DNA of 64,000 nt from an uncultured virus (IMG/VR IMGVR_UViG_3300021256_003716) (taxonomy: Duplodnaviria; Heunggongvirae; Uroviricota; Caudoviricetes). Below the pieces are notes generated by a model, which saw only the letters and a list, made by a program, of their open reading frames with translations, had not been told where the DNA came from and made no database searches. Location of the stretch: IMG/VR virus record IMGVR_UViG_3300021256_003716; one strand, written 5' to 3'. This document shows, piece by piece, positions 14,466-42,864 of this stretch. Positions within the stretch are counted from its first letter, which is position 1, and every line of letters starts with the position of its first letter. A program made the translations under genes and the position numbers.

Positions 14466-14594
14466 ATGAATACTTCTAAGAAGATTATTAAATCAGTTAC
14501 TCTTAGTGTAAAACCCGGCTGTGGGATTGTGCTACCATGTCTTAAAGGAATTTGGCAAAAGGAAGAGAGCTTAGAAACGAATTTAATTATCTAA
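14466..14594 (+). CDS. Attenuator leader peptide A (42 aa)
   Basis: AGGAG RBS; MNTSKKIIKSVTLSVKPGCGIVLPCLKGIWQKEESLETNLII. Confidence 0.75.
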   Translation: MNTSKKIIKSVTLSVKPGCGIVLPCLKGIWQKEESLETNLII

Positions 14595-14621
14595 AATAAG
14601 ATGTAATTAAAAAAGTTTTCT

Positions 14622-14651
14622 AGGCTCGGTTGAAAAAACTGAGCCTTTTTT
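14622..14651 (+). terminator. Attenuator A terminator
   Basis: AGGCTCGGTT-GAAAA-AACTGAGCCT plus T tract. The 5' arm can alternatively pair with 14567-14577. Confidence 0.8.
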
Positions 14652-14716
14652 ATTGGTAAAAGCTGCTAGACTTCCTTCCAGTCTTAGAAGTCGTTCACAA
14701 TGTTTTTGAAAATTAT

Positions 14717-15621: not shown

Positions 15622-15747
15622 ATGAGAAACGTAACTGTTAAAACAATTAAGATTACTCAGATTAAATACAACAAACCAGTTGTAATTAAACCCGTATGCC
15701 CATGGTGTCCTATTAAGGTATGGCCAGATTTGGAAGATTCTAAGTGA
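15622..15747 (+). CDS. Attenuator leader peptide B (41 aa)
   Basis: AGGAG RBS; MRNVTVKTIKITQIKYNKPVVIKPVCPWCPIKVWPDLEDSK. Confidence 0.8.
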   Translation: MRNVTVKTIKITQIKYNKPVVIKPVCPWCPIKVWPDLEDSK

Positions 15748-15783
15748 AATTTTTAATGATGCAAAATTAGAAGTTTGATTTAG

Positions 15784-15812
15784 AGTCTTTCAGGAAACTG
15801 AAAGACTTTTTT
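15784..15812 (+). terminator. Attenuator B terminator
   Basis: AGTCTTTCAG-GAAA-CTGAAAGACT plus T tract. Antiterminator 15730-15745/15778-15793. Confidence 0.85.
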
Positions 15813-15819
15813 ATTTTTA

Positions 15820-25609: not shown

Positions 25610-25782
25610 ACACTAGTCTTCTGTACCACTTTTAGGGACTTGGTGAAAAAGGTAGTAAGCCTAAAAGTCCTGAAGACCTTCGACAAATTACAATCGGTTA
25701 AAGTTGTCAAAAGGAGAAAACCGTGCTAACTAATCACGGAGGCTGTTAGTCCTCAGCTATATCAAAAGGACATTATTTTTAT

Positions 25783-25940: not shown

Positions 25941-26244
25941 TTTGCAATTATAAGTCTGAAAGGAAAGAAGAGTTGGCAACTCTCGTAATCTTGTGCAAGT
26001 GCGTAAAAAACACCCAGAGATTCAAGTGAGAAACGAAAAAACTTCCAAGTAGGAGAGGGAGAGTGGTGCTAGCCACGACCACACACTCAAGTAAGTTGCT
26101 GCTTATCTGGATGAAAGTTAATATCCTGTTGGGAATTTGCGAGCCCATAAAAAGACTGAAGTAACGAGGTCATACCGAAGGAAACAGACAACGATGCACG
26201 TGATACAATTGCGTAGCTAACACGTAAAATAAGACTGGGCACCA

Positions 26245-26318
26245 CGTCTTTCTAGCTTAACTGGTAGAGCCGCATCGATATAAGGTGCGAGGTGTAGGTT
26301 CAAATCCTGCGAGGACGA
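26245..26318 (+). tRNA. tRNA-like gene, TAT in a non-canonical loop
   Basis: Good D and T arms; GCATC-GATATAA-GGTGC. Confidence 0.55.
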
Positions 26319-26716
26319 TAAAATGGGATTCTAGCGTGCTTTGGCATGCATGTGAATAGCGACGTCTAGCACGTCTCCCAAGGTATGTTCCGACCTGGCT
26401 TATCTATCAGAATTTGGGGCGAAGATAAGAGATACGAACACCTAGGAAAATTTATGTAGGAGTTATTAAAAGTATGCCAGTTAAGTGGGTAACCCGCTTC
26501 TGGAGGACTACCAAGGCGTGGCCTGCATTTCGACGGAAATGTACCGACCGGTGAAGGTGCTAGTTAGAACCAGATAATTTCTAGCTGACTTGAATGTCAA
26601 CCATAGACCTTGCGAGCTGAGTGCGTGCATTACGAGCGCTCTTAAAGCAGCCAAATTGCATCGGGCATTCCTTTTTAATTATATGGAGATTTTCGCTTAT
26701 GACTTATCATTAGGTT

Positions 26717-26962
26717 ATGTATAGAGCACAACCTAAAAGACAAGACCATGGAACTCGTGGTTCTAAAAGAGAGTCATTACTCCACTGGGGTAACGTTAAG
26801 AAGGGTATGAAGCAATTTTTAAAAGCTGCATACAGAGAACAAAAACACAATTGGAAAATTGAATTAAACAAGCTAGGAATCGATTGTACTGATGAAGAAA
26901 TCGAGGAATATGAAACAAGAACTCAGTTTAATTCACAATGCATGTGGTATTGGTTTGACTAA
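26717..26962 (+). CDS. Hypothetical protein
   Basis: ORF track. Confidence 0.6.
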   Translation: MYRAQPKRQDHGTRGSKRESLLHWGNVKKGMKQFLKAAYREQKHNWKIELNKLGIDCTDEEIEEYETRTQFNSQCMWYWFD

Positions 26963-27061
26963 TCAATAAAATTATTAAAGAAACTGGCCAGGGATCTCTA
27001 ACGGATGCTGAGAGGCTTAATGATGCTACTGAATGGTGGTAGCCCAGTTTCTTTTTATTTT

Positions 27062-27136
27062 GGCCCTATAGCTCAACTGGATAGTAGCAATTGCCTTCTA
27101 AGCAATAGGTTCCCTGTTCGAGTCAGGGTAGGGTCA
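27062..27136 (+). tRNA. tRNA-Arg(TCT)
   Basis: ATTGC-CTTCTAA-GCAAT. Confidence 0.9.
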
Positions 27137-27332
27137 TAGTAAGTTTTTTGTAGATTTTTTGATATAATAGACTCGTACTGGGAACGAGGGAAGATGTTTA
27201 TTAGCGCTTATGGCATTTTCAATAATCCTACTTCCTGTGTATCTATTTTTGAGGACTATGCATAGCAATAGGTACTGAAAGTTGTATAATAGAGGGACAA
27301 CTTAAAACTTATTAAAAAAATCTACATTTTTT

Positions 27333-27407
27333 GGCCGCATCGTCTACGGTGGTTTAGGACATCGCCCTCTCAAGGCGAAAAACGGAGTTCGACTCTCCGT
27401 GCAGCTA
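27333..27407 (+). tRNA. tRNA-Glu(CTC)
   Basis: TCGCC-CTCTCAA-GGCGA. Confidence 0.85.
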
Positions 27408-27800
27408 AAACGCTCCATTGAATTACGCACTAGGATATGGAGACTAGACTAGACCGAAGCGTAGGGGACATGAGTCAGAAGTTGTGGTGTGCTCTAGTTT
27501 TCACTAGACTGTCCACTCAGGTCAAATACTTGCTATAAAAGGTGCGAGCTGAAATATTGCATAGATCACCCCAAAAGTTTGACCATTTTTAATTATTTTT
27601 ATTAAATATCTACTCATAAAAGCATTTAAAATTTAGATGCTTTTTTATTTTAAAAATTAATGTGAATTTTCTAAAAATGAAGTTATATTAATTAATGAGT
27701 ATTGAGAAGGTATATCTGAGCCTTGCGCTAGCGGCTTAATATATAGGCTTTTTAAAATTTTTATACATATTATAAATATTATAAAGATTTTGGGGTAGTT

Positions 27801-29673: not shown

Positions 29674-30465
29674 ATGAAGATTGAAGATGTTAAGAAAGTT
29701 CGTGAAATTACAGGCGCAGGCCTTTCTGATTGTAAAACTGCTTTGGAAAAAGCAAATGGCAATGTAGATGAAGCAGTTAAGGTTCTTCAGAAAGAAGGCC
29801 TTGCAGCATCAAATGCTCGTGCACAGCGAGCTACTTCAGAAGGTCGTATTTTTACTCATGTTGAAGATAATGTTGTTACAATGTATGCAGTTAAATGTGA
29901 AACTGACTTTGTAGCTAATAGTGAGGATTTTAAGAATATTGGAAAATGCGTTGATGATGGTGAAACTCTTGGAGCTGTAATTGATAGACTTAAAATTTCT
30001 ATGCGTGAAAATATTCAGCCAGGAAATTTTGTCAAAGTTCCTTTTGACTTAAATGATATTGGCTCAACCTATATTCACTCAGATGGTAAGTCAGGTGCGG
30101 TAGTTCTTATTGAAGGAGTAGATCCTGCTAAAGTAGAAAGTGCAAAGGTTTTTGCTCATGATGTTTGTTTGCATATGGTAGCATTTAATCCACTGTATAT
30201 TTCAGTAGATGATGTTTCCCCTTCTGTTGTTAGTGAAAAACGCGAAATTTTTGCAGCTCAGATGGATAACGATCCAAAAATGACAAATAAGCCAGAAAAT
30301 GTAAAAGCTGGAATTCTTCAGGGTAAACTTAAAAAAGCTATTTCAGAACTTTGTTTGCTTAGCCAGCCATTTGTAAAGGATGATAAAAATACAACATCTT
30401 ATGTACTAGCTCGTGAGTGTGGACCTAATGCAAAAATTAGAGAAGCTAAACTTATTCAGCTTTAA
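29674..30465 (+). CDS. tsf: Translation elongation factor Ts
   Basis: VKKVREITGAGLSDCKTAL, CETDFVA, YIH, LHMVAFNP, KPENV..GK. Confidence 0.95.
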   Translation: MKIEDVKKVREITGAGLSDCKTALEKANGNVDEAVKVLQKEGLAASNARAQRATSEGRIFTHVEDNVVTMYAVKCETDFVANSEDFKNIGKCVDDGETLGAVIDRLKISMRENIQPGNFVKVPFDLNDIGSTYIHSDGKSGAVVLIEGVDPAKVESAKVFAHDVCLHMVAFNPLYISVDDVSPSVVSEKREIFAAQMDNDPKMTNKPENVKAGILQGKLKKAISELCLLSQPFVKDDKNTTSYVLARECGPNAKIREAKLIQL

Positions 30466-30481
30466 TATTTAAGGAAATACT

Positions 30482-31552
30482 ATGGATAGCAGAGACGATT
30501 CAAAAAAGTGTTTGGAACTCTGGAGAAAACATCTAGAAGCTCAATATGATTATCCAAGCACTGAGTTTAGTAATGGATTTGAAAGTGGGCTTCGTCAAGC
30601 TAACGAAGAAATTGCTGCGTTACGTAAAGAAAATTATGAGTTACGTCAAAAAGGTACTTGTCAGCGATTGGAAAATGAAATTCTGCGTCTTAAAGATACT
30701 TTGCGTACATATAGAAATACTGAATACTTAGAAGACCATAATAAATGCTTAAAATGTAAAAATTTTAGAAATTGTTTTAAGGAAGACCCTTCTGAGAGAA
30801 GTGGCTGTCCTTATTATGATAATTATTGTGATGGTGACCATATCCATAGTATTTTTTCTCCGAAGTTTGAAGAAAATCCGGACTATACGCCTACGTTATA
30901 TAAGGGATATACTGGATGGAGTCAGGGTGAAGAAATTAACCTTAGCGGTGATAGGCCTATTATGTATAATGACATGTTAAAACGCTTTAATGAGTTTATA
31001 CATTATTTTTATTCACCAAATAGCTGTATTTCCATTATTGCTAGGGTTGATAATAATAAAACTTCTGTTACTGAACAGGAATTTTTATTTGTTGGAGATG
31101 ATTATAAATATAAAAACAAAGGCTTTGGTATTCTTAATGAGGATAGAAGTAAAGCAGTAGCAAATTTTAAGAGCCGTGAAAAACTTAAAAAAGAAAGTAC
31201 AAAGTATGACGCAAAGTATGCTTGCAAAGGAAGAGATAAACCTTGGTGGGAAGCTCGTGCGGAAGAACATACTGTTCATCCTATAAAAAATGCTATTGAA
31301 GCAAAGAAAAAAGAAAATAGGAAACTAATACCAGAAGGTACAGAAACTATATTTGCAGATATAAATTGTCATACACATACTGATCTTACTGAAGGTGTAG
31401 TATATTGTAATAGCTTTAATCCTTCAGACGAAGCTAAAGTAAAGTTTTTCTGGGACAATCCTATTGATTATGATTGTACAGCATTTAATAAAGATGGTGA
31501 TATTCTGGGAGACAATCAACCAGATACTGATGATATAAATAAAGGAGAATAA
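30482..31552 (+). CDS. Hypothetical protein
   Basis: 356 aa ORF. Confidence 0.75.
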   Translation: MDSRDDSKKCLELWRKHLEAQYDYPSTEFSNGFESGLRQANEEIAALRKENYELRQKGTCQRLENEILRLKDTLRTYRNTEYLEDHNKCLKCKNFRNCFKEDPSERSGCPYYDNYCDGDHIHSIFSPKFEENPDYTPTLYKGYTGWSQGEEINLSGDRPIMYNDMLKRFNEFIHYFYSPNSCISIIARVDNNKTSVTEQEFLFVGDDYKYKNKGFGILNEDRSKAVANFKSREKLKKESTKYDAKYACKGRDKPWWEARAEEHTVHPIKNAIEAKKKENRKLIPEGTETIFADINCHTHTDLTEGVVYCNSFNPSDEAKVKFFWDNPIDYDCTAFNKDGDILGDNQPDTDDINKGE

Positions 31553-31554
31553 TT

Positions 31555-32456
31555 GTGGAAAAATTTTATATTTATGAAACAGGTGCAACTGTTTTTGGTG
31601 TTAAAGATGGCGTTGTAACAGAGTATTCTAAACACGAAAGCCCAAAAGTATGTGATGAGCAAGATACAAAAGTTATTCTTGAAGATATTGATAAAGGTAT
31701 AATGAAGTCAGTTTCATCAGTTAAGGATGGCTTTGGTAGGCTTAATCAGATTGAAGTCTTAGATGATATTTTTTAGGGACTAATTTATATTATGAAGCAA
31801 ATTACAGCAGAGTTTAAAAAGAGACTGTCAGACCGTCTTAATACAATTATAAAGAATAATGAGCAACTTATACTTACACATAAAAATGGCGTAAAAGAAG
31901 AGCTTATTGTGGGACGCTCAAGAGATAGTATTTATATTTATAATAATGATGCAGATCTTATCACTGCTTTTGAAATTGAAGGTGGGAATGGCGCTTATGA
32001 GCTAAATCTCAAAAATGCTTCAATTTGGCTTTATAAAGCTGCATATTTAGATCAACTAGTTTCTGATAAATAGATTTAGTATGTATGAATAATAAAAAAG
32101 AACCAAAAATATTTAAAAAAGGTACAAAAATAGATTTTAATTTTACACATGTTCCAGAATGGGGGCGAGGCGTTCCAAGATGCTTATTAGGTAAAGGATA
32201 TTTTTGTATTGGAAATGAAGAATCTGTTAAAGGCTGGTATGAAATTAAAGGTAATATAGATTACTATTTTGATGATAAATGGAAAGGAAAGATACCATTT
32301 AAGGGTTCATTTCAGCTAATAGAAACTCAAGCAGATATTTTTATTGAGACATTTAGTGGGTATAGTTGGCATTTTATAGAACATCATAATTTTGACCAAT
32401 CAGAATACCCTTTTGAAATATGTACTTTTGATACGCATATTTCAGCTATTCAATAA
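31555..32456 (+). CDS. Three small hypothetical ORFs (31555-31776, 31792-32073, 32085-32456)
   Basis: ORF track, tandem. Confidence 0.6.
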
Positions 32457-32541
32457 TTTTAAGGATTTTATTAGTATTGTTAATTTAATATTAATTGAAT
32501 TAAGTAAAAATAACTAATTTAAATATGTAAGTTTAGTTTTT

Positions 32542-32572
32542 TATACTTATAACTAACTAATTACATATAATA
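32542..32572 (+). promoter_or_regulatory. Putative phage promoter (TATACT-N~15-ACATAT[A/T]AT class) upstream of leader C
   Basis: The motif recurs more than 12 times at the starts of transcription units. Confidence 0.65.
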
Positions 32573-32621
32573 AATGTAGCTTGTGTGGCTACTTAAGAAT
32601 TTTTAATAGGAGTCAAAGAAT

Positions 32622-32735
32622 ATGACTAGAAACGTTAGTTTATTACAGTTTAGTTTTCTCAGCCAGATGCACTTTAGCTTGCATCAGTTCTTTATGCTCT
32701 TATGTGAAGGGGCTAATCGGAATAGTATTAAGTGA
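32622..32735 (+). CDS. Attenuator leader peptide C (37 aa)
   Basis: AGGAG RBS; MTRNVSLLQFSFLSQMHFSLHQFFMLLCEGANRNSIK. Confidence 0.85.
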   Translation: MTRNVSLLQFSFLSQMHFSLHQFFMLLCEGANRNSIK

Positions 32736-32774
32736 TTTTTAGATTTATAAGAACAGTTAATAGATTTTGATTAA

Positions 32775-32809
32775 AGCCCTTTCAGGAAAGATTCTTGAAA
32801 GGGTTTTTT
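32775..32809 (+). terminator. Attenuator C terminator
   Basis: AGCCCTTTCAGGAA-AGA-TTCTTGAAAGGGTT plus T tract. Antiterminator strand at 32705-32723. Confidence 0.85.
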
Positions 32810-32815
32810 ATTTTT

Positions 32816-32889
32816 GCTGAGGTAGCAAAGTAGGTCAACTGCAGCGGACTGAAAATCCGCCGATGTGAGTTCGATTCTCACCCTCAGCA
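32816..32889 (+). tRNA. tRNA-Phe(GAA)
   Basis: GCGGA-CTGAAAA-TCCGC. Confidence 0.9.
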
Positions 32890-33009
32890 TAGCCTATATA
32901 CGAATGTGAAACACCGAGTAGGATATAGGTACAGATTGATGATAAATCGCGGTACAAGAACCATAGGAGCCGCTTAAAAAATGTCCCGAGGTAGGAGTGT
33001 TTCAATTAA

Positions 33010-33091
33010 GGGTTCGTGGCGGAACTGGTATACGCATCCGGCTTAAGACCGGACGCCGTAAGGATTGAGAGTTCGATTCTCTCCGGGCCCA
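33010..33091 (+). tRNA. tRNA-Leu(TAA)
   Basis: TCCGG-CTTAAGA-CCGGA. Confidence 0.9.
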
Positions 33092-33239
33092 AGAGGAAGA
33101 TAATGATGTTTGGTTCGACTCCAAATTTAAGTTGGTCAAGTCAGAGCTCTTTCATGATAAAGCTTATTTTAAGTTGAAGCTTTCAAAACTCTAAAGTCGT
33201 GTACAAGGCTGAGTTACTTTAGTAGATTTAAAAATTTAT

Positions 33240-33312
33240 CCAGACTTAGCGCAATTGGCAGCGCCGCTCGCTGAAGACGAGATGGTTCTAGGTTCGAGTC
33301 CTAGAGTCTGGG
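33240..33312 (+). tRNA. tRNA-Phe(GAA)
   Basis: CCAGACT/AGTCTGG; loop CTGAAGA. Confidence 0.85.
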
Positions 33313-33313
33313 C

Positions 33314-33388
33314 TAAAGAAATGCTGTAGTATAAGAGATACTTAGACTTAAAATCCAAAATACTCTTATTCAATTTTTGCTTTCTTTA
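33314..33388 (+). ncRNA. Y-RNA-like repeat, copy 5 (minimal)
   Basis: Conserved stem with an anticodon-loop-like insert GA-CTTAAAA-TC. Confidence 0.6.
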
Positions 33389-33393
33389 TTTAT

Positions 33394-33468
33394 GGTGACA
33401 TTAGCTCAGCTGGTAGTAGCGGAAGATTGTGGATCTTCAGGTCCTGGGTTCAAACCCCAGATGTTACC
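33394..33468 (+). tRNA. tRNA-His(GTG)
   Basis: G-1:C73; GAAGA-TTGTGGA-TCTTC. Confidence 0.9.
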
Positions 33469-33472
33469 CGTC

Positions 33473-33619
33473 CAAAAATATGCTGTAGAAGAAGACTTAC
33501 TTAGGTAATGATATCTTTTGAAACAGGAAAATCTAATTGGTTCAAATCCAATAAGGGTAAGTGGTTACTGATACCCTTAAAGTGACAAAATAAAGTTTTC
33601 TTCATTTTTGCTATTTTTG
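33473..33619 (+). ncRNA. Y-RNA-like repeat, copy 6
   Basis: Conserved stem; T arm followed by a closed 7-bp AAGGGTA/TACCCTT stem. Confidence 0.65.
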
Positions 33620-33624
33620 TTTTT

Positions 33625-33709
33625 CGGGATATAGCCGAATTGGTATAGGCGACAGGTTGAGGTCCTGTGGGCTGAAAAGCTCGTGGAGGTTCGAGTCCTC
33701 TTATCCCGA
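33625..33709 (+). tRNA. tRNA-Leu(GAG)
   Basis: ACAGG-TTGAGGT-CCTGT. Confidence 0.9.
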
Positions 33710-33710
33710 C

Positions 33711-33783
33711 TGTACAGGTAGAACAATGGCTAGTTCAGAGGTCTGTGGAACCTCCTATGCGGGTTCGATTCCCGTCCTGCACA
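33711..33783 (+). tRNA. tRNA-His(GTG)
   Basis: GAGGT-CTGTGGA-ACCTC. Confidence 0.8.
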
Positions 33784-33906
33784 TTAAAAGGAGCTTTACG
33801 AGTTTACGTGTGCGGAGCCAGAACCAGAAAAGCGGGCGACAGCATTGTGCTAACCTGCTGAATGACTAAGCCAGACTAGAAGGGCTCTGGGAAGCTTCTT
33901 ATTTAT

Positions 33907-33990
33907 GCGAGTGTGGCGAAATTGGTAAACGCAGCATCCTCAAAAGATGCCGTCCGAAAGGACTTGTCGGTTCGAGTCCGACCATTCGCA
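33907..33990 (+). tRNA. tRNA-Leu(CAA)
   Basis: GCATC-CTCAAAA-GATGC. Confidence 0.9.
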
Positions 33991-33998
33991 CTATTTAC

Positions 33999-34072
33999 TG
34001 CTCCATAGCTTAATCAGGTAAAGCAACGCGTTCTGACCGCGGAGAGTCTGGGTTCGAATCCTAGTGGAACAA
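33999..34072 (+). tRNA. tRNA-Gln(CTG)
   Basis: Loop TTCTGAC, canonical D and T arms. Confidence 0.8.
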
Positions 34073-34122
34073 TATAAGTTTTTTACTTATAAAAACTTAG
34101 ATACATATAATATATAATAATT

Positions 34123-34197
34123 TGCAGAGTTAGCTTAGTTGGTTAGAGCATCCGGCTCATATCCGGACGGTCACTGGTTCGAATCCAGTACTCTGCA
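34123..34197 (+). tRNA. tRNA-Met(CAT) (or lysidine-type Ile2)
   Basis: TCCGG-CTCATAT-CCGGA. Confidence 0.85.
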
Positions 34198-34437
34198 TAA
34201 AACTTAAGCTGAATAAGTAAGTTGTGATGAGTTAGTGACCGTGATTACATAGAAGGATGAGCTTTTTCAGAAAAGAAAACGAGTATCAGCGTTTCCGTTT
34301 GGAGCTTATGTACAGAGCTCTATATAAAGTATGATTTAGCAATAGTGTTCCTCGCGGAATCTTAAAAAGGGTAATGTGCAAGCAAAAGAAAATTCAGAAC
34401 GAAGTGGCTTTTAAAGAAGCTGAGTAGGCATGTTTAT

Positions 34438-34509
34438 TCCTCCGTGGTGTAATGGGTAGCACCAGGCACTCTGGATGCTTTAGTCTGGGTTCGAATCCTG
34501 GCGGAGGAA
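34438..34509 (+). tRNA. tRNA-Gln(CTG)
   Basis: TCCTCCG/CGGAGGA; loop CTCTGGA. Confidence 0.9.
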
Positions 34510-34688
34510 CTTTTTCGGGGAAGTTCCGAAGTGCAGAACGTTGTCTTACTTTATGGAAGGTTTGCGACCTGAAAAGATGATATGAAAGCAAGTATCACAT
34601 TCCAATAAAGGAAAAAACCGCGTGACAACAATACCAGTGACCATGCAGAATGATGTTGAGCTGGTAAACTTTTTAGAAAGGTATATGA

Positions 34689-34955
34689 ATGAGTAAAAAA
34701 CTAAAATTTACGGGTGGTGTAACACCCAGAGGTTTTGAAACAATTCATTTTGATGATCTTTATGGTCAGAAGTGTAGGATTCAAAAATCTTCATTAGCAA
34801 CAGAGGAAGCTTGGTGGATTGGAATAGAAAATTCTGGTCCTAATATTAAAGGTCCTAAAGGTGATTATAATGAAGAAGTAAATGATTTAATGCATCTTTC
34901 TAAAAAACAAATTAGAAATTTAATTGATAAGCTAGAAGAAATTATAGCTGATTAA
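34689..34955 (+). CDS. Hypothetical phage protein
   Basis: TPRGF..F.DLYG..C.IQKSSLATE..WIG..MHLS. Confidence 0.7.
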   Translation: MSKKLKFTGGVTPRGFETIHFDDLYGQKCRIQKSSLATEEAWWIGIENSGPNIKGPKGDYNEEVNDLMHLSKKQIRNLIDKLEEIIAD

Positions 34956-34964
34956 GTTATATAA

Positions 34965-35052
34965 GGAGGTGTGGCCCAGAGGCTACGGCAGGGGATTGCT
35001 AATCCCCCGGTTGGGGTAACCCGCCACGCGAGTTCGAATCTCGCCGCCTCCG
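34965..35052 (+). tRNA. tRNA-Ser(GCT)
   Basis: GGGGA-TTGCTAA-TCCCC, long variable arm, G73. Confidence 0.9.
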
Positions 35053-35367
35053 TACTTTTGCCAGTTTCTTAAAACTGGTGGGAATCCCAGGTATTAGATA
35101 AAATCTATACTAAGTCGTCTACCTCCAGCGACAATAAATAATTGGGGGTAGCATTTTTAGGGGTGAATTTATGTCTAGCTGTGATAATTGTAACCATAAC
35201 TGGCTTTGTGCAAGTGATGCTTGGACAGGACATATTTGTAATATATATGGCTATGAAATAGAAAAAATACCTTTAGAAAAGAGAAAGGCTGTATTTAAGA
35301 ATTGTAAATATGCAAAGCTAAAAGTAAATAAAGGTGATAAAAAATAGCCTTTTGGAGGTTCTCAGAT

Positions 35368-35622
35368 ATGGGAAAGAAAACTAAATGGGTTCTGTGTTTA
35401 ACACGCACAGATGTCGTAGTTGGAACAATTGGAGCGGTTATTAGCTCATTTTTTTATGTATTGGGTCTTTTATTTTATTTCTGTAACAGTACTGTAATAA
35501 GTTTTATTTCATTTATGTCAGCTTTGTCTGTATTAGTTTTACTTTTGGTATATTTTATAATTGGAGAAATAAATCTTAGAATTGCGGACAAGAAAAATAA
35601 ACCCAAAGAAAAGATTGTGTAG
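35368..35622 (+). CDS. Hypothetical membrane protein
   Basis: GGAGG RBS; two hydrophobic segments. Confidence 0.65.
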   Translation: MGKKTKWVLCLTRTDVVVGTIGAVISSFFYVLGLLFYFCNSTVISFISFMSALSVLVLLLVYFIIGEINLRIADKKNKPKEKIV

Positions 35623-36375
35623 TTAATATAAAATTACGAATTGGTTTTAATAATATTGTCTAGTTTGGTATTTTAGGAAGGTATCGATATTCCCGTAAGT
35701 TATCGTTTAAATGGGTGAAATGCTGTGGAGCTATAGCCTTCCTTTACTTGTGACCGTGCCAAGTATAAAAGTACGTACGGCGGCACTAAGCAGTCTGCCA
35801 TAGAAGTGACTGTGAGACCTTCGGCAGTTAAGTCGGAAAAGTCCATAGTAATATGGTTAAGCTGCCAATTTTATTGGAGAAATATTTTGGTAGACTTAAC
35901 AACGCTTCCAAATCAGATTGGATGTTATACAAGACGAAGCCCAAAATCTAATGCTTGGATAAATGGTAATATGATTGTTCTAATTACGGATCATAGTGTT
36001 AGCTTTGGAACAGCAATCCCAGTCGGAGCTTGTTTTAGAAAAGCGGAAGTTTCTTCAAATGAAGAAGCTATCGCTGAAGTTAAAAAAGGCTGGAAAAAGA
36101 AAAAGTAATTTTATACTTGCTTTGAATTAAAAACATATAATATATGTAAGTCTTTTCGAAGATAACAGACTAAGAACCAGGTTAAAAACCTGGCATCTCG
36201 CTGGTCGGGGTGGTGAGTGCTACGCTTAGAGGTCAACTGCGAAAATAGAAAAGCCGCTTTAAGTAGAAGCGCCCTAATATAGGGGTCTTTAATGGAATAC
36301 CAGAAATCCTACTTCGTGCTTATATAGGAAGATGATTAAGCTTCGTTAAGGTTGACAGCCATAAAACTTCCATTT

Positions 36376-36476
36376 GGGAAATCAAGCAACATCGGCGATT
36401 GTTATCTATCCGTTAAGGATAGAGGAGTAAGTCCCCGCAAGGGCGTCTATGTTGGTTCGACTCCAATATTTCCCTC
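36376..36476 (+). ncRNA. tRNA-like RNA (7-bp anticodon stem, GTTAA loop)
   Basis: GGGAAAT/ATTTCCC; TCTATCC/GGATAGA; T arm. Confidence 0.5.
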
Positions 36477-36623
36477 TGGGTGCAGCAGCGTCTTGGATAG
36501 CACGTTATTAGGACTAACCTAATTGCACAAAGGAGTTAGCCAGGGGACATAGTAATATGCCTCGTTCTAAGACTAGTGTACTGGGCGGGTTTGGGCTGAT
36601 GGAAGGTACACATTTTAATACGT

Positions 36624-36698
36624 AGCGGGCGAGTGAAACGGAATTATCATGCCGGGCTCATATCCCGGTGATACTAGGTTCGACTCCTAGGTCCGCCA
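36624..36698 (+). tRNA. Initiator-type tRNA-fMet(CAT)
   Basis: 1:72 mismatch and GGG/CCC in the anticodon stem. Confidence 0.8.
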
Positions 36699-36759
36699 AA
36701 TCAGAGAGTTGCAAATTTCTGAGAGTAGATTTAGTATTCTAGATGCTAAGTTGAAAGTT

Positions 36760-36833
36760 TATTCCGTATGCCAATGGTAGAGCAGCGGCCCGTTTGTGCC
36801 GTGGATATGTGAGGTCAAGACTCATCGGAATAA
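36760..36833 (+). ncRNA. tRNA-like RNA with an 8-nt loop
   Basis: TATTCCG/CGGAATA; GCGGC-CCGTTTGT-GCCGT. Confidence 0.45.
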
Positions 36834-37148
36834 TTACTAGTGGGTATTGTGGAACCTTAAATCCACCGGGACGAAAGTCTGAAAGTACCTTAAGTTAGAA
36901 ACAATGTAGTACTTAAGTTGTTTTTAGCGAGCCTTAAGTGGCAGCCGGAAGGTGGTACATGGCCTAAAGTAACTTGGATAGGATCATATCTGAAAATGAT
37001 ATGACAGGTTCTCCAAGGTAGGAAGGGCGCGCGGGTAACCAGTGTCATCAGGGAGGTTACAGGGAGCGGGACGCTGACTAAACGATGAATATGAGAGACC
37101 GCCCAGGCAGTAGGCCTAACCGGCTAAAGTCAGCATTTTTTATTTTAC

Positions 37149-37292
37149 GGGGAGTCTGGTAACTAATCGGTAAGTTACGGCTAGATGTAAACTAGCTGCT
37201 CGTTTCATGCATAATGATGGCCTAAAAGCATGTTGAAGTTTAGTTACGCGTATTAAACAAGAGCTTTGCGTGTTCGACTCCGTGGCTCCCCA
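37149..37292 (+). ncRNA. tRNA-like RNA with a GTA loop and very long variable arm
   Basis: GGGGAGT/GCTCCCC; 6-bp D stem; GCTAG-ATGTAAA-CTAGC. Confidence 0.55.
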
Positions 37293-37389
37293 CTATTAAC
37301 GTTTTAGTTATTATCGTAAAATAATTTGGCGGTGGGGAAGTGCTTTGCACCCCTCTGTTCGGCTTAAAGAACTGAAACTTAAGCAATTG

Positions 37390-37975
37390 AACAAGAAAAA
37401 GTTCTAAAAATCCGTCGGAAATTTTAAGGTGGCGTGAATACCTTAGATCAAGTCTATCGCGTTAAAATTATTAGTAAAAAGTAGAGGTGCGAATCCTCGG
37501 TCGCTCTGTAAAGGGCCACCAAGTCTAAGTCATAACTTAATGTAAAAGACTTTCTAATGTTAGTTACCAGTGGAAAGCTGGCTGCGAGCGAGTTTGATGA
37601 TTTTTGTGGCAACGAGTTTATGGATAAATAAGCGAAAGCTGAATAAAATAGTTCATAGTACCAGCGATGCCAGATATAGCTCAGATAACATACCATATAA
37701 ATCGACTTCGTGTGCGTGTTGGTAATAAAGTTAAGAGCAGCACACTCTTAATGTGCGTGTCGGTGCAAGTTGTTAAGCATCTAACTGGAATCGGTAAAAG
37801 CTCAGAGTCTGTAGCACTAGAAACAATGAGCATGAATGCCAAATAACGGTTCGAAACTAATCCACAATTTTTAGTTTCATTGATAGTTTTACCAATATGC
37901 TACTAGGAAGCTTAAAAGTGCCGATGTGGAGTCAGGCGTTGATATTTAAGCAAAAGAAAAACTACAGGAAAGGTT
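37390..37975 (+). ncRNA. ROOL-like large RNA
   Basis: About 580 nt with GAGGTGCGAATCCTC, TATAGCTCAGATAAC and AAAGCTCAGA..GTAGCAC segments recalled from ROOL. tRNA-island context. Boundaries approximate. Confidence 0.55.
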
Positions 37976-38596
37976 AAATTTATATAGGGACGATAAAGTC
38001 CCTTATTTTGGAATAAGTCGTAACGAGTATTTCTTGTGCAAATAAGACCTCCATTGTGAAAAAAGACTGCTGTATTATATGAGTCATTTGGCCGTAATAC
38101 GGAGTTGGTTAGCCGAGCTGAAATTGATGCATCGAGTAAGCTCAGAGAAAGGATAAGACAAAGTGCATAGTCGTCTAAATGGGAGGGCGCACTCTGAAAG
38201 AGGAGTGAATATGGGTTCGAATCCCATTTATGCTTTGAAGCGCCAGAAAATAACGGACCAAGTGTTAAGTATAGGTCTGGTAGACCGTATAAAGTGCCCG
38301 CTTGGATAGCGGCCGTGACGAGAAGGCTGGGACCTATAACGCCTCATTAGCTTGTTAAACTAAAAGACGCTATACGAGTTGTATATTAGGGTGATTGCAA
38401 CACGAGAGGGTGAAGCTTAAGCCACAAAAATCCCTAATTTTTAAAAGCTGTGTGAGACGAGGAAGTTCCTCTCAATAGCCACAGTAGCTAGCTCGGCTAG
38501 TGGAGCCCCAATTTTTGGGGCGTTATTGTTAATATAAAATTATTAGAATTTTTGAGAAAATACTAATTAAATATAAATTTTAATAAGGAGACGAAA

Positions 38597-38689
38597 ATGG
38601 TAATACGTAGCAGACAAATTCAACAAATAATACGTCAAAATTGTACATATACTAGTTCGTCTTTAATTTTTAAAGTGGTTAAGAAGTAA
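38597..38689 (+). CDS. Attenuator leader peptide D (30 aa)
   Basis: AAGGAG RBS; MVIRSRQIQQIIRQNCTYTSSSLIFKVVKK, with ATA x3 and CAA x4. Confidence 0.75.
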   Translation: MVIRSRQIQQIIRQNCTYTSSSLIFKVVKK

Positions 38690-38721
38690 TCAATTAAAAA
38701 TAATAAAAATATTTTATCATA

Positions 38722-38752
38722 GGCGAACTAGAAATAGTTCGCCATTTTTTTT
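38722..38752 (+). terminator. Attenuator D terminator
   Basis: GGCGAACTA-GAAA-TAGTTCGCC-A-T8. Antiterminator strand at 38652-38662. Confidence 0.8.
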
Positions 38753-39059: not shown

Positions 39060-40235
39060 ATGTTTGATATAAATGGAAAATATGGCTCAGCAAAAGTTTA
39101 TGCGGAAACAATTGATGATGCTTGTATTTCACAGATTTATGGATTTTTAAATAATCCTATTACAGAAAATGTAAAAGTAGCAGTAATGCCAGATGCTAAT
39201 GTTGGCAAAGGCAGTACAGTTGGTTTTACACAAGAAATTAAAGATAAAGTAAATCCAAGTATGGTCAGTGTTGATATTGGATGTGGCATGTTGGTATGCA
39301 AAGTATCTAAAGAATATCATATGGATTTACCAAAGTTAGATAAAGTAATTCACCAGCAAATTCCTAGTGGCTTAAAGCACTGTGATAAGGTAAGCCTTTT
39401 TGCTAAGAATATCGACTTAAAAGGTCTTATTGCGGATGTAAATTACAATAAGGAAATTTTAGGTCTTTCATCACTCGGAGGTGGTAACCACTTCATTGAG
39501 GTAGATAAAGATCAAGAAGGTGATTACTATATTGTAATCCATTCTGGATCAAGACACTTAGGTGTTGCAGTTTGTGAGTATTGGGAAAAAGTAGCTAATA
39601 ATTTTCATAAGAAGCTAGCGGTAAAGAAATCAGAGTTGATTAATGCTAAAAATGAAAAAGCGTTAGCAGAATTGCCACCAGTAGTAACTTCTTATGGATT
39701 ATCTTATTTAATGGGAGAAGACCTAAAAGGTTATCTACATGATATGAAGATTACACAGGAGTTTGCAAGGCTTAACCGTGAAGCAATGCTTGATGTAATT
39801 CTTACTGAAATGGGAATTAAGAAGCGATATATTTTGGATAAGTTTTGTACTATCCATAATTATATCGACTTAAATAAAATGGTTTTAAGAAAGGGCGCAA
39901 TTTCTCTTGAAAAAGGTGAAAGAGCAATAATTCCAATTTCTATGGCATATGGCTCTTTAATTGTAGAAGGCAAAGGAAACCCTGATTGGAACTTTTCTGG
40001 ACCACATGGGGCAGGAAGACTTTTATCAAGGTCAGACGCTAAAAATTCTATTTCTATGGAAGACTATAAGAAATCTATGGAAGGAATTTATACAACTTGC
40101 GTAAAAGCTTCAACAGTAGATGAGTCACCAATGGCTTATAAAAATCCTGATGAGATTATTAGAGCTATTGATGGTACAGCAACAATTATAAAGACAATAC
40201 ACCCTATTTATAACTTTAAGGCCGGTAGTGATTAA
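39060..40235 (+). CDS. rtcB: RtcB RNA ligase (2',3'-cyclic phosphate / 5'-OH)
   Basis: MPD, DIGCG, GGGNHF, HSGSR, HNY, RKGA, HGAGR, DESPMAYK. Confidence 0.95.
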   Translation: MFDINGKYGSAKVYAETIDDACISQIYGFLNNPITENVKVAVMPDANVGKGSTVGFTQEIKDKVNPSMVSVDIGCGMLVCKVSKEYHMDLPKLDKVIHQQIPSGLKHCDKVSLFAKNIDLKGLIADVNYNKEILGLSSLGGGNHFIEVDKDQEGDYYIVIHSGSRHLGVAVCEYWEKVANNFHKKLAVKKSELINAKNEKALAELPPVVTSYGLSYLMGEDLKGYLHDMKITQEFARLNREAMLDVILTEMGIKKRYILDKFCTIHNYIDLNKMVLRKGAISLEKGERAIIPISMAYGSLIVEGKGNPDWNFSGPHGAGRLLSRSDAKNSISMEDYKKSMEGIYTTCVKASTVDESPMAYKNPDEIIRAIDGTATIIKTIHPIYNFKAGSD

Positions 40236-40583: not shown

Positions 40584-40657
40584 ACTCCAGTAGCTCAGCA
40601 GTCAGTAGCAGCATCCTTATAAGTTGTTGGTCGGTGGTGCAATTCCATCCTGGAGTA
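40584..40657 (+). tRNA. tRNA-Ile(TAT)
   Basis: ACTCCAG/CTGGAGT; loop CTTATAA. Confidence 0.75.
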
Positions 40658-40747
40658 TCTGAGGTAAACGGTAATTGGTACCCGCCCTGGCTTTGAACCA
40701 GTAGCGACCCAAAAGTTGCTCTGCAGGTCCGAATCCTGCCCTCAGAA
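40658..40747 (+). tRNA. tRNA-Gln(TTG), long variable arm
   Basis: TCTGAGG/CCTCAGA; loop CTTTGAA; AGCGAC/GTTGCT arm. Confidence 0.8.
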
Positions 40748-40759: not shown

Positions 40760-40788
40760 GAACCATAGCATAAGCTATGGTTCTTTTT
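40760..40788 (+). terminator. Intrinsic terminator ending the rtcB-tRNA unit
   Basis: GAACCATAGC-ATAA-GCTATGGTTC plus T tract. Confidence 0.8.
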
Positions 40789-42470: not shown

Positions 42471-42563
42471 ATGACAATGGTAAGAACAAACAGAACAATT
42501 ACTCGTCGTAGACGTATCACACGTCGTAGATATGTCATGTCTTTATGCGAACTCCAGATTTAA
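42471..42563 (+). CDS. Attenuator leader peptide E (30 aa)
   Basis: GGAG RBS; MTMVRTNRTITRRRRITRRRYVMSLCELQI. Confidence 0.8.
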   Translation: MTMVRTNRTITRRRRITRRRYVMSLCELQI

Positions 42564-42587
42564 ATTTTTGATAATTTGAATTTTAGC

Positions 42588-42614
42588 AGGCAGTTCGCAA
42601 GAACTGCCTTTTTT
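42588..42614 (+). terminator. Attenuator E terminator
   Basis: AGGCAGTTC-GCAA-GAACTGCCT plus T tract. Antiterminator strand at 42546-42553. Confidence 0.85.
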
Positions 42615-42619
42615 ATTTT

Positions 42620-42692: not shown

Positions 42693-42699
42693 CTTTTTT

Positions 42700-42779: not shown

Positions 42780-42785
42780 TATTTT

Positions 42786-42859: not shown

Positions 42860-42864
42860 TTTTT

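Follow-up and report, generated by a model that had tools for sequence, protein, structure and literature searches.

Growth rate, acting through stringent control, is usually regarded as setting the transcription of tRNA genes, without specificity for individual tRNAs. A 64,000-nucleotide stretch of DNA from an uncultured giant tailed gut phage (Caudoviricetes; IMG/VR record IMGVR_UViG_3300021256_003716), termed here the window, contains an array of 11 tRNA genes with a short ORF and a hairpin directly upstream. This layout, termed element C, raises the question of whether transcription of the array can be governed by the translation of codons for the same tRNAs. A preliminary description of this DNA proposed such an attenuator. 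The analysis presented here suggests that a phage tRNA operon is controlled by element C, acting as a ribosome-mediated transcription attenuator of the leader-peptide type, a reading to which we assign a probability of roughly 0.8 on the basis of the sequence.

The tRNA array and its leader ORF

Array C consists of 11 tRNA genes for 8 tRNA species at 32815-35052 on the + strand, all found by both ARAGORN and the Rfam tRNA model (51-72 bits):

32815..32890, + strand, tRNA-Phe (GAA), 68.3 bits
33010..33091, + strand, tRNA-Leu (UAA)
33240..33313, + strand, tRNA-Phe (GAA), second copy
33395..33469, + strand, tRNA-His (GUG)
33625..33710, + strand, tRNA-Leu (GAG)
33711..33784, + strand, tRNA-His (GUG), second copy
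33907..33991, + strand, tRNA-Leu (CAA)
33999..34072, + strand, tRNA-Gln (CUG)
34123..34198, + strand, tRNA with anticodon CAU, taken as elongator Met, 72 bits
34438..34510, + strand, tRNA-Gln (CUG), second copy
34689..34955, + strand, 88-aa ORF from the ORF list, without a Pfam family in the Pfam search
34965..35052, + strand, tRNA-Ser (GCU), class II

The list of downstream tRNAs given previously is identical to the ARAGORN output in all eleven genes, and a permissive Rfam scan of 32500-36800 revealed no extra tRNA inside the array. The CAU tRNA is presumably the elongator Met species by identity rules judged by eye: it has a G-C pair between positions 1 and 72, and its anticodon stem is devoid of the initiator GGG/CCC.

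Upstream of the array, the following elements are present:

32546..32572, + strand, promoter-like box CTTATAA-N9-TACATATAATA with TATAAT at 32566-32571, a putative promoter of leader C
32608..32612, + strand, AGGAG Shine-Dalgarno sequence, 9 nt 5' of the leader ATG (32622)
32622..32735, + strand, leader ORF C, 37 codons and TGA, peptide MTRNVSLLQFSFLSQMHFSLHQFFMLLCEGANRNSIK
32637..32702, + strand, regulatory block, leader codons 6-27
32705..32723, + strand, antiterminator 5' arm, within leader codons 28-34
32764..32784, + strand, antiterminator 3' arm, overlapping the terminator 5' arm
32773..32813, + strand, intrinsic terminator, a 16-pair stem (32773-32807) with a 3-nt loop, followed by a T-run

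The Shine-Dalgarno sequence is read directly from the DNA, and leader C is presumably translated. Codons 6-27 are AGT TTA TTA CAG TTT AGT TTT CTC AGC CAG ATG CAC TTT AGC TTG CAT CAG TTC TTT ATG CTC TTA, a set limited to AGT/AGC, TTA, TTG, CTC, CAG, TTT/TTC, ATG and CAC/CAT. Under strict wobble rules, all 22 codons have a cognate tRNA downstream and all eight tRNA species have a codon; the block covers eight tRNA species and six amino acids, in agreement with the isoacceptor-level match over 22 consecutive codons noted previously. The reported absence of TCN, CAA and CTA codons likewise holds, and extends to the whole leader ORF (32622-32735).

The preliminary description called for a chance calculation from codon usage. 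Among 11,548 background codons, the 12 cognate codons have a combined frequency of 0.185 (0.185^22 = 7.6e-17). Over all six frames of the window, this corresponds to 8e-12 expected cognate runs of 22 codons, or 2e-9 with the six-frame frequency of 0.24; the second-longest cognate run in these frames is 9 codons. Even with the amino acids of leader C held fixed, every one of the 14 codons at which a synonymous choice exists is cognate (product of background probabilities, 2.6e-4).

The promoter-like box pattern has 8 matches with three or fewer mismatches, compared with 0.79 expected. Exact copies are located only at 32546 and 34086, and a copy with three mismatches is located at 14360, upstream of another leader (leader A; see below). 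A further weak sigma-70-like site (9/12) lies upstream of leader C at 32518-32547. The second exact copy lies inside the array:

34086..34112, + strand, internal promoter-like box, 0 mismatches to the box upstream of leader C, 11 nt before tRNA-Met

This internal box, which also scores 10/12 as TTTACT-18-TATAAT, may provide an independent entry for the Met, second Gln and Ser tRNAs that bypasses the attenuator. The concern that a box near 34103 might drive the whole array is thus justified as to the existence of the box, but not as to its reach: given its position, it could feed only these last three tRNAs and not the first eight.

Predicted alternative RNA structures at the end of the leader

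The terminator ends 8 nt before the first tRNA gene (Phe), and its stem is stable (-20 kcal/mol, z -5.36). In the RNA preceding completion of the terminator, an antiterminator is predicted in which 32705-32714 pair with 32775-32784 and 32715-32723 with 32764-32772. For 32700-32790, the minimum-energy and centroid predictions both give this antiterminator (-31.4 kcal/mol, z -6.42; matched by none of 200 shuffles), which contains exactly the pairing proposed before. The two hairpins are mutually exclusive in these predictions, as the antiterminator 3' arm is the terminator 5' arm. No protector (1:2) helix is predicted for element C. For untranslated leader RNA, folding predicts the antiterminator (0.64), which argues against default termination of the trp type.

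The influence of ribosome position was modeled by folding the transcript up to the terminator loop while a 30-nt ribosome footprint was shifted codon by codon, for leader C and the 17 similar leaders described below. The terminator 5' arm is sequestered when the A-site is on the regulatory codons and freed in the final 5-10 codons. In 14 of the 18 leaders, cognate codons give more sequestration than the stop codon does (Wilcoxon P 3e-4); the remaining four (A, C, 2a and 3b) show no such excess. In leader C, sequestration falls from 0.6-0.75 (codons 1-24) to 0.3-0.4 (codons 25-35) and returns to 0.66 at the stop codon, where a ribosome leaves all but about 6 of the 19 bases in the antiterminator 5' arm uncovered. 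When the full terminator is included, equilibrium folding of most leaders yields the terminator almost regardless of where the ribosome is placed (P at least 0.8 throughout in C). As equilibrium folding is blind to ribosome position, the switch would have to be kinetic, and a kinetic competition between the two predicted folds is thus the form in which the mechanism is proposed.

Sister elements in the window

Four further leaders in the window have the anatomy of element C, and this anatomy heads five of the six window clusters with at least two tRNAs:

14466..14655, + strand, sister element A, leader MNTSKKIIKSVTLSVKPGCGIVLPCLKGIWQKEESLETNLII, terminator 14622-14646
15622..15818, + strand, sister element B, leader MRNVTVKTIKITQIKYNKPVVIKPVCPWCPIKVWPDLEDSK, nested in array A, terminator 15782-15809
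38597..38751, + strand, sister element E, leader MVIRSRQIQQIIRQNCTYTSSSLIFKVVKK, terminator 38721-38744
42471..42619, + strand, sister element D, leader MTMVRTNRTITRRRRITRRRYVMSLCELQI, terminator 42588-42609

Element A precedes Gly, Ser, Gly and Leu tRNAs, followed by Pro, Trp, Ile, Val, Cys and Lys tRNAs (14717-18607), and element B precedes Pro, Trp (two), Pro, Ile, Val, Cys (two) and Lys (four) tRNAs. Element D is followed by Arg gcg, Arg tct, Arg acg, Thr cgt and Arg tcg (42620-43107). The leader of element E includes three ATA and four CAA codons; its operon consists of a small ORF, the RNA-repair ligase gene RtcB (39060-40235), a 99-aa ORF, tRNA-Ile(UAU) and tRNA-Gln(UUG), in this order (tRNAs at 40584-40747).

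Codon matching across related phages

Three huge phages found in IMG/VR via RtcB (G001, G002 and G003) contain 13 more leaders of the same anatomy, giving 18 with the five of the window; the RtcB-linked relatives have 40-55 tRNA matches per record. Fourteen of the leaders came from an automatic screen and four were chosen by eye, and the array boundaries and wobble rules used in the comparisons are analyst-defined. In all 18 leaders, codons cognate to the leader's own array are over-represented (binomial P 2e-2 to 3e-12). When leaders and arrays were permuted, none of 100,000 permutations reached the observed match, either for all 18 leaders or for the automatic 14. Under strict wobble, the leader's own array ranks first for 10 of the 18 leaders and third or better for all of them. 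A GC-rich stem with a T-run is located 24-47 nt after every leader, in each case with an overlapping alternative helix (18/18).

The choice among synonymous codons follows the anticodons of the array. With strict wobble, the array has a cognate tRNA for 118 of the 171 codons that offer a synonymous choice vs. 87.8 expected (P 2e-7), and when superwobble is allowed the figure is 102 of 126 informative codons vs. 68.8 expected. The ratio of AGY to TCN serine codons is 21:4 where tRNA-Ser(GCU) is the only serine tRNA of the array and 3:20 where the array has only TCN readers (Fisher P 1.4e-6). Likewise, CAG:CAA is 5:0 with CUG-only arrays and 0:9 with UUG-only arrays (P 5e-4), and the Ile codon ATA is confined, among the 18 leaders, to leader E, the one with tRNA-Ile(UAU). 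The match is not universal: it fails for Thr in leader D, where 0 of 5 Thr codons are cognate to the CGU anticodon, and Val shows no enrichment, with 8 of 18 codons cognate and no strict reader for the GTA codons of leaders A and B. Because the Ser-box and Gln-codon choices switch with the array anticodons and 118 of 171 codons are cognate, the sequences support sensing of tRNA species, not of amino acids, as had been supposed from leader C.

The ortholog of element C in G002 (L002:2198-2305) precedes Phe, Phe, Leu, His, Leu, Leu, Cys, Leu, Gln, Ser and Gln tRNAs, shares a 21-nt identical run of leader codons with leader C, and has a predicted antiterminator of -31.3 kcal/mol (z -5.5). Comparison by eye reveals a three-way compensatory change: U32781 is replaced by C, its terminator partner A32799 by G, and its antiterminator partner A32708 by G. 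Contigs about 98% identical to 32506-32815 are present in three rumen metatranscriptome libraries from two studies; these are possibly DNA-derived, and show the presence of leader-like sequence only, as transcript ends are not readable from contigs. Their differences inside the leader ORF are synonymous and still cognate (AAC to AAT, CAC to CAT), and those 3' of the ORF fall in the predicted antiterminator loop (32745-47) or a predicted bulge (32773-74). In a more distant huge phage, G004 (36 tRNAs on L086), no leader is found at the one terminator-to-tRNA junction.

Alternative explanations

An ordinary gene layout could in principle produce the features of element C, with the terminator ending the upstream gene (32085-32456) and the short ORF being a meaningless frame. 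The DNA is AT-rich, with 71 ORFs of 20 aa or more within 5.5 kb, and terminators are common at gene ends. However, the terminator is separated from the stop codon of the upstream gene by 317 nt and from a tRNA by 8 nt, a Shine-Dalgarno sequence precedes the ORF, runs of 22 cognate codons are expected 8e-12 to 2e-9 times where the next-longest is 9, and the arrangement is repeated 17 more times with codons matched to the respective array each time. On sequence grounds this explanation is effectively refuted, with a negligible probability. The short ORFs might instead encode functional micropeptides, e.g., hydrophobic membrane peptides, with a composition selected for peptide function; the hydrophobic character of leader C and its ortholog (rich in L, F and S) and their conservation at the peptide level would fit this idea. 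Yet the composition differs completely by leader (Arg/Thr in D, Asn/Thr/Pro in 3a, Tyr/Met/Ser in 3e) in a manner that tracks the adjacent tRNAs, and peptide function cannot explain why synonymous codon choice tracks anticodons, which leaves micropeptides as a very improbable explanation.

The remaining alternatives accept a sensor but place its input or output elsewhere. The leader RNA might bind uncharged tRNA directly, as a T-box does, with the ORF being incidental: terminator/antiterminator logic and tRNA specificity resemble T-box control, and T-boxes are common in hosts of the AT-rich gut setting from which the phage comes. However, a T-box reads one specifier codon, whereas 22 in-frame codons for eight tRNA species follow a Shine-Dalgarno sequence and ATG here, variation within the ORF is synonymous in relatives, and neither a T-box nor any other cis-regulatory Rfam family matches at gathering score in the window; a sensor made of RNA only thus seems hardly credible. 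Alternatively, the leader could sense decoding speed while its output is Rho access, RNase processing or precursor stability instead of intrinsic termination. This would be consistent with the equilibrium folding, which favors the terminator at any ribosome position, with the heavy processing of tRNA precursors, and with RNA-library contigs in relatives that span the leader, the terminator and the next tRNA (X16, 306 nt beyond 32815). Against it, all 18 leaders have a GC-stem/T-run hairpin with an overlapping alternative helix, and the three-way change between element C and its G002 ortholog keeps both helices. An output other than termination is therefore considered unlikely.

Comparison with known attenuators

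In enterobacteria, leader-peptide attenuators such as trpL, hisL, leuL and pheL, and the multivalent thrL and ilvL (ilvGMEDA), read charged tRNA, not the amino acid. Element C shares with them an ORF with a Shine-Dalgarno sequence, a cluster of regulatory codons, and a terminator and antiterminator that share the terminator 5' arm, as well as, in the proposed mechanism, the choice of fold by ribosome position. Like thrL and ilvL, it combines several amino acids in one leader. Unlike the enterobacterial systems, which regulate biosynthetic enzymes, the elements described here precede tRNAs (and RtcB in element E), so that the sensed molecule would be the direct gene product. Further differences are that synonymous codons of element C fit the array anticodons, with eight tRNA species sampled; that it has no predicted protector helix, unlike trp-type leaders, so that untranslated RNA should read through; and that it is phage-borne, in a genome with several differently programmed copies.

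The pheM leader, which contains Phe codons only as regulatory codons, is the attenuator of the E. coli pheST (phenylalanyl-tRNA synthetase) operon. It resembles element C in that leader-peptide attenuation controls a component of the translation apparatus acting on the sensed tRNA, but it is cellular, targets a synthetase and reads one amino acid, whereas the targets here are the tRNA genes themselves. T-boxes (RF00230) similarly choose between terminator and antiterminator by an isoacceptor-specific codon-anticodon match and control tRNA-charging genes, but they bind uncharged tRNA directly, without a ribosome, through one specifier codon, whereas element C has a translated ORF in the proposed mechanism. 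No Rfam leader family (Trp, His, Leu, Thr, etc.) matches the window, in which all 37 matches at gathering score are tRNAs, and no T-box is found at gathering score in the window or at E ≤5 in 32500-36800 and 14300-18800. At E ≤5, Rfam gives sub-threshold chance matches only (trpB motif, 25.7 vs. 59, at C; PyrG leader, 28.8 vs. 65, at B). In the literature, we found no description of leader-peptide attenuation controlling tRNA genes.

A model for attenuation of the tRNA array

The features that had been proposed, i.e., an ORF with a Shine-Dalgarno sequence, a regulatory codon block, an antiterminator sharing a terminator arm, and a terminator before the tRNA genes, are borne out at the level of sequence and are consistent with the following model. 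Transcription would begin upstream of leader C, probably at the promoter-like box, and the 37-codon leader would be translated, with codons 6-27 sampling the eight downstream-encoded tRNA species in turn. If any of the eight is scarce in its charged form, the ribosome would stall within 32637-32702, leaving 32705-32723 free to pair with 32764-32784 and to tie up the terminator 5' arm. RNA polymerase would then continue into the tRNA genes. If all eight are ample, the ribosome would enter codons 25-35 and cover the antiterminator 5' arm, allowing the terminator (32773-32807) to form and transcription to end 8 nt before tRNA-Phe. The outcome would be negative feedback in which the products of an array stop their own synthesis, for each array and each isoacceptor.

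For this model, we infer the direction of the response and ribosome-polymerase coupling in the host. In Bacillus subtilis, transcription and translation are reportedly uncoupled, and uncoupling of this type in the phage host would make the attenuation mechanism harder.

More tentatively, and with considerable doubt, the leaders might be sentinels for attack on the tRNA pool, in which case they would constitute a per-isoacceptor circuit of damage sensing and repair instead of simply keeping supply constant. If an isoacceptor were cut by a host anticodon nuclease or another tRNA-depleting defense, the ribosome would stall at that codon in the matching leader, and the phage would turn on replacement copies of that tRNA set. 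RtcB is located inside the attenuator-controlled unit of element E and of the first leader of G001, and these leaders would turn on the RNA-repair ligase as well.

Overall, a known switch, leader-peptide attenuation, has apparently been turned onto tRNA genes themselves, such that slow decoding of the codons of a given tRNA set would trigger synthesis of that set, with isoacceptor resolution. The five differently coded copies in one genome provide a built-in comparison set for experiments. If the model is correct, it would offer synthetic biology a compact, codon-programmable sensor of individual tRNA species, and would open to direct testing the connection of phage tRNAs, RtcB repair and host tRNA-targeting defense. 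It would also explain how giant phages that carry 40-55 tRNA genes control their dosage, and the leaders would be a natural, readable list of the tRNAs that the phage treats as limiting in its host.

Codon matching and alternative folds in element C

Element C is an eleven-tRNA array preceded by a leader ORF and two predicted, mutually exclusive hairpins, with the following components.

32608-32612, AGGAG
32622-32735, + strand, leader ORF
32637-32702, regulatory block of the leader (codons 6-27)
32705-32714 with 32775-32784, and 32715-32723 with 32764-32772, pairs of the antiterminator
32773-32807, terminator, followed by a T-run
32815-35052, eleven tRNA genes, + strand

The leader ORF and the AGGAG before it are present as in the preliminary description, and codons 6-27 are identical to those listed there (AGT/AGC, TTA, TTG, CTC, CAG, TTT/TTC, ATG and CAC/CAT). 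All eleven tRNAs claimed, with their anticodons, were recovered by ARAGORN and score 51-72 bits each against the Rfam tRNA model; a permissive Rfam scan found no hidden tRNA within the array. Under strict wobble rules, 22 of 22 codons are read by array C and all eight of its tRNA species have a codon, so that the proposed mutual match holds. The chance probability of such a run, which had been left to be computed from codon usage, is 7.6e-17 per position. The 12 codons cognate to array C make up 0.185 of 11,548 long-ORF codons, about 8e-12 cognate runs of 22 codons are expected across six frames of the window, and the longest other cognate run in the window is 9 codons. When the peptide is held fixed, each of the 14 codons for which a synonymous alternative exists is cognate (background probability product, 2.6e-4), namely five Ser codons (AGY), three Gln codons (CAG) and six Leu codons, with neither CTA nor CTG among them.

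The antiterminator proposed previously is both the MFE and the centroid fold of 32700-32790 (-31.4 kcal/mol, z -6.42). The terminator (-20 kcal/mol, z -5.36) ends 8 nt before tRNA-Phe. The interpretation of element C as an attenuator is supported on sequence evidence.

Sister elements and their genomic setting

Four sister elements and two protein genes of interest are located in the window as follows.

14466-14594, element A, before Gly, Ser, Gly, Leu and the tRNAs beyond
15622-15747, element B, nested in array A, before Pro, Trp, Trp, Pro, Ile, Val, Cys, Cys and four Lys
29674-30465, EF-Ts (Pfam EF_TS, E 5e-36), 2.2 kb upstream of leader C
38597-38689, element E, with ATA x3 and CAA x4, before a small ORF, RtcB, a 99-aa ORF, tRNA-Ile(UAU) and tRNA-Gln(UUG)
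39060-40235, RtcB RNA ligase
42471-42563, element D, Arg/Thr-rich, before four Arg tRNAs and one Thr tRNA

A leader of this build heads five of the six window clusters containing at least two tRNAs. The Arg/Glu tRNA pair at 27061-27408 is not headed by such a leader, and none was seen upstream of the single tRNAs (1063, 3164, 26245, 36623 and 38163) where their flanks were inspected. A 51-aa ORF with a Shine-Dalgarno motif and a Lys/Glu/Arg-rich tail (18035-18190), located 69 nt before four Lys tRNAs, was left out of the leader count because no terminator hairpin was seen.

Elements A and B form a nested design at 14466-18607. Leader A holds codons for all 16 tRNAs (G, S and L as well as K, I, V, P, C and W). 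Leader B, whose regulatory block is KPVVIKPVCPWCPIKVWP, holds only the codons of its own downstream tRNAs (K, I, V, P, C and W), and this block has no Gly, Ser or Leu.

RtcB belongs to units under putative attenuator control. The window copy stands between leader E and the tRNA-Ile(UAU)/Gln(UUG) genes, the next terminator being at 40760-40783; in G001, a related huge phage, it lies between tRNAs governed by the leader at L001:8083 (L001 8083-13100), where a terminator scan found none at 8262-13468. Between tRNA-Pro and tRNA-Trp of array B, 15923-16029 gives a sub-threshold match to the Y RNA-like YrlA (46.4 bits for a gathering score of 69; E 2.5e-8 within the searched region). In some bacteria, Y RNA and RtcB genes share an operon.

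The window has a G+C content of 32.9% and 41 tRNA genes, all on the + strand. Its other genes include those for nicotinate phosphoribosyltransferase, acetyl-CoA carboxylase carboxyltransferase and many proteins without a family. A megablast search of 30000-37000 against INPHARED phages gave no match. As relatives of the window RtcB are carried by IMG/VR viral contigs of 219-419 kb with 39-55 tRNA matches per record, the window is interpreted as a piece of an uncultured huge phage. Parts of the stretch occur in public runs labeled as gut and bovine gut metagenomes. Two long stretches without convincing ORFs, 25300-27800 and 35700-38500, have by eye a higher G+C content than their surroundings, and contain single tRNAs and tRNA-like fragments (e.g., GGTTCGAATCC at about 25918). 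ARAGORN also calls an Asn(att) at 3164 and, at 38163-38236, a tRNA whose anticodon has four bases (aaag).

Leaders in related phages

In the window and in the tRNA regions of three related IMG/VR records (G001, G002 and G003), an automatic screen required a tRNA with a terminator no more than 200 nt away and, ahead of that terminator, an ORF of 12-70 codons that starts at ATG and has a Shine-Dalgarno-like motif. This screen yielded 18 terminator-to-tRNA junctions in ten stretches, 14 of which have a qualifying ORF. Of the other four, two have a leader whose Shine-Dalgarno motif is weak or missing (L084rc 1432 and L085 1288), and two have no leader (L002 13371, and L086 11183 in the more distant phage G004). 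With window element E and L084rc 3953 added by eye, the leader set comprises 18 members, 14 found automatically and four by eye. Examples are shown below.

Example leaders and the arrays that they precede
Leader MKSLSLQCQLLSSSLLSWCLLSSVPVGTK, array Trp, Leu, Leu, Leu, Gln, Cys, Ser, Leu
Leader MQNVHYTSFVISSNSMFGYSYYMMGYSGK, array Tyr, Tyr, Met, Met, Ser, Ser
Leader MLFMNTTTNPTNNNPEVLQD, array Asn, Asn, Pro, Pro, Pro, Thr, Thr
Leader MFTMNYDYNNNFSYENVTYDYGTEETTLYKRES, array Asn, Tyr, Asp, Asp, Met, Thr, Glu, Glu, Asn, Gly, Met

A stricter screen of all 80 RtcB loci gave 16 junctions, 14 with a Shine-Dalgarno-bearing ORF, all in the ten closest loci (L001-L010); the 70 more distant loci (L011-L080) have zero terminator-to-tRNA junctions. 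In G004 (L086, 36 tRNAs), the sole such junction comes after a protein gene and has no leader. The G003 leaders are preceded by a common A-rich, TATATAAT-like stretch (AAAACAGGAAAAAA...TTTTTATATATAAT), seen by eye at L084 1380-1431 and 3903-3952 (reverse strand) and at L085 1260-1287, which is probably the promoter of that phage's leader units.

Conservation of element C

Searches of IMG/VR for orthologs of leader C found none via the neighboring 356-aa protein, and only that of G002 via EF-Ts, the G002 EF-Ts (53% identical) being the sole viral relative found. When an EF-Ts alignment was used to scan metagenomes, the matches were cellular EF-Ts (28-38% identity) and L150 (46% identity), which was rejected as it has two scattered tRNAs and no array. 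A degenerate leader 21-mer retrieved G002 and L087 from IMG/VR, the latter a false match to an unrelated repeat in a stretch with no tRNAs.

The tRNAs behind the G002 ortholog (L002:2198-2305) are Phe, Phe, Leu, His, Leu, Leu, Cys, Leu, Gln, Ser and Gln. This ortholog has 21 identical leader-codon bases in common with leader C, whereas the EF-Ts and RtcB proteins are just 53-61% identical, and it folds its own antiterminator (-31.3 kcal/mol, z -5.5). By eye, a three-way change distinguishes the two elements: in G002, U32781 of the shared arm is replaced by C, and both of its partners, A32799 in the terminator and A32708 in the antiterminator, are replaced by G, so that both alternative helices are kept.

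Three bovine-gut metatranscriptome libraries from two studies (X13, X16 and X6) contain contigs with about 98% identity to 32506-32815. The differences of these contigs within the ORF (AAC to AAT, CAC to CAT) are synonymous and still cognate, and those 3' of it fall in the loop at 32745-47 and the bulge at 32773-74 of the predicted antiterminator. Similarity stops at 32815, and at least one contig continues into an apparently different tRNA. These contigs demonstrate conservation of the element in relatives, not its transcription; that those of X13 and X16 both stop at 32506, where the DNA contig X9 runs on, is a weak hint.

Codon choice across 18 leaders

Codons cognate to a leader's own array are enriched in all 18 leaders (binomial P 2e-2 to 3e-12). 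When arrays were permuted among the leaders, the observed summed enrichment was reached in 0 of 100,000 trials, and likewise in 0 of 100,000 when permutation was limited to the 14 automatic leaders. The own array ranks first for 10 of the 18 and never below third, its rivals being nested or orthologous arrays.

The match extends to the synonymous level, at which 118 of 171 informative codons are cognate for 87.8 expected (z 5.1, P 2e-7), or 102 of 126 for 68.8 expected if U34 may read entire family boxes. Three comparisons are independent of wobble rules. The Ser AGY:TCN ratio is 21:4 before arrays with only tRNA-Ser(GCU) and 3:20 before arrays with only TCN readers (Fisher P 1.4e-6); Gln is encoded by CAG in 5/5 cases with Gln(CUG) only and by CAA in 9/9 with Gln(UUG) only (P 5e-4); and ATA is confined to the leader of the Ile(UAU) operon. 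There are exceptions: the five Thr codons of leader D (ACA, ACT) are not read by the Thr(CGU) of its array, and GTA occurs in leaders A and B without a strict reader, Val codons being cognate in 8 of 18 cases.

Ribosome position and the predicted switch

Equilibrium folding with the complete terminator favors the terminator almost everywhere and does not separate ribosome positions. For this reason, each leader transcript was folded only up to the terminator loop, i.e., before the terminator 3' arm exists, and a 30-nt ribosome footprint was stepped codon by codon along this fold. In most leaders, the pre-terminator fold contains a helix joining the distal ORF end to the terminator 5' arm. In the model, this arm remains sequestered as long as the A-site holds a regulatory codon and is freed once the ribosome reaches the last 5-10 codons. 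In 14 of 18 leaders, cognate codons give higher sequestration than the stop codon does (Wilcoxon P 3e-4), and by eye the decrease in most leaders comes close to where the regulatory block ends. In leader C, codons 1-24 give 0.6-0.75 and codons 25-35 give 0.3-0.4; with the ribosome on the stop codon, most of the antiterminator arm is unmasked and sequestration is 0.66.

The anatomy and codon statistics of the leaders are seen in the sequence and their geometry in the footprint model, and classical leader-peptide attenuation logic most likely governs these arrays. Against this reading stand the equilibrium preference for the complete terminator, the value of 0.66 at the stop codon of C, and the predicted antitermination of untranslated C RNA. 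When a charged tRNA is scarce, the ribosome would stall, leading to antitermination and transcription of the array, and smooth translation of the leader would lead to termination. Promoter use, leader translation, kinetic competition and ribosome-polymerase coupling are steps that we infer.

Promoters and other RNA signals

Exact matches to the motif CTTATAA-N9-TACATATAATA are located at 32546-32572, upstream of leader C, and at 34086-34112, ending 11 nt before tRNA-Met. Leader A and several protein genes have copies with three mismatches upstream of them (8 matches for 0.79 expected), and a sigma-70-like scan also lists 34082-34111 (10/12). ACTAATTW was noticed by eye ahead of leaders A, C, D and E and rejected as a promoter since it is not enriched (15 matches in the window for 18.9 expected).

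The preliminary description would count the attenuator as refuted if internal promoters, such as a box near 34103, drove the whole array independently. The box is present, but it could serve the last three tRNAs only. Because of this promoter-like box at 34086-34112, Met, Gln and Ser may have a separate entry point; for the first eight tRNAs of array C, no entry point of their own was found. The box weakens whole-array gating for these three tRNAs, not the attenuator itself.

Further signals were observed around the arrays. A motif, ATGCTGTAG-N(6-14)-CTTAG, recurs 8-10 nt past the 3' end of four tRNAs (1146-1170, 14799-14822, 33321-33345 and 33480-33504; 4 matches for 0.02 expected). A 72-nt 'tRNA-Ser(gct)' called at 14813-14884 by ARAGORN and Rfam starts inside this motif, and T-arm-like hairpins are seen further on at 33108-33128 and about 33540. 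These sites could represent processing signals or non-canonical tRNA-like genes. Should they prove to be tRNAs, array C has more members than listed here.

The spacer from tRNA-Met to an 88-aa ORF (34223-34690) is covered by RNA contigs at depths of 108-419 (X13), 14-49 (X16) and 21 (X6) and by DNA contigs at 1.6-8 (X9), all depths being per contig and no basis for ranking expression. The RNA contigs leave some stretches of 32000-35500 uncovered, and no meaning is attached to these gaps. RNA contigs from two studies (X6, depth 47; X13, depth 288) skip 34275-34339 (64-65 nt), and an X9 DNA contig over 34138-34381 is collinear with the window. This region may give rise to an abundant non-coding RNA from which a segment is excised, or relatives may have a shorter variant.

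Relation to known attenuators

thrL and ilvL are multivalent leader-peptide attenuators, and element C would be alike in working as one. The nearest case with a translation component as target is the pheM-pheST attenuator, and the nearest case of isoacceptor-specific sensing is the T-box riboswitches. Unlike trp, untranslated C RNA is predicted to antiterminate (0.64). Rfam scans gave no sequence membership in known leader or T-box families. No report of attenuation control of tRNA genes was found in the non-subscription articles covered by full-text search.

Sequence analysis supports the view that these elements are a known kind of switch, here applied to tRNA genes. As the products of each array are the very molecules that its leader would sense, each array would be under negative feedback.
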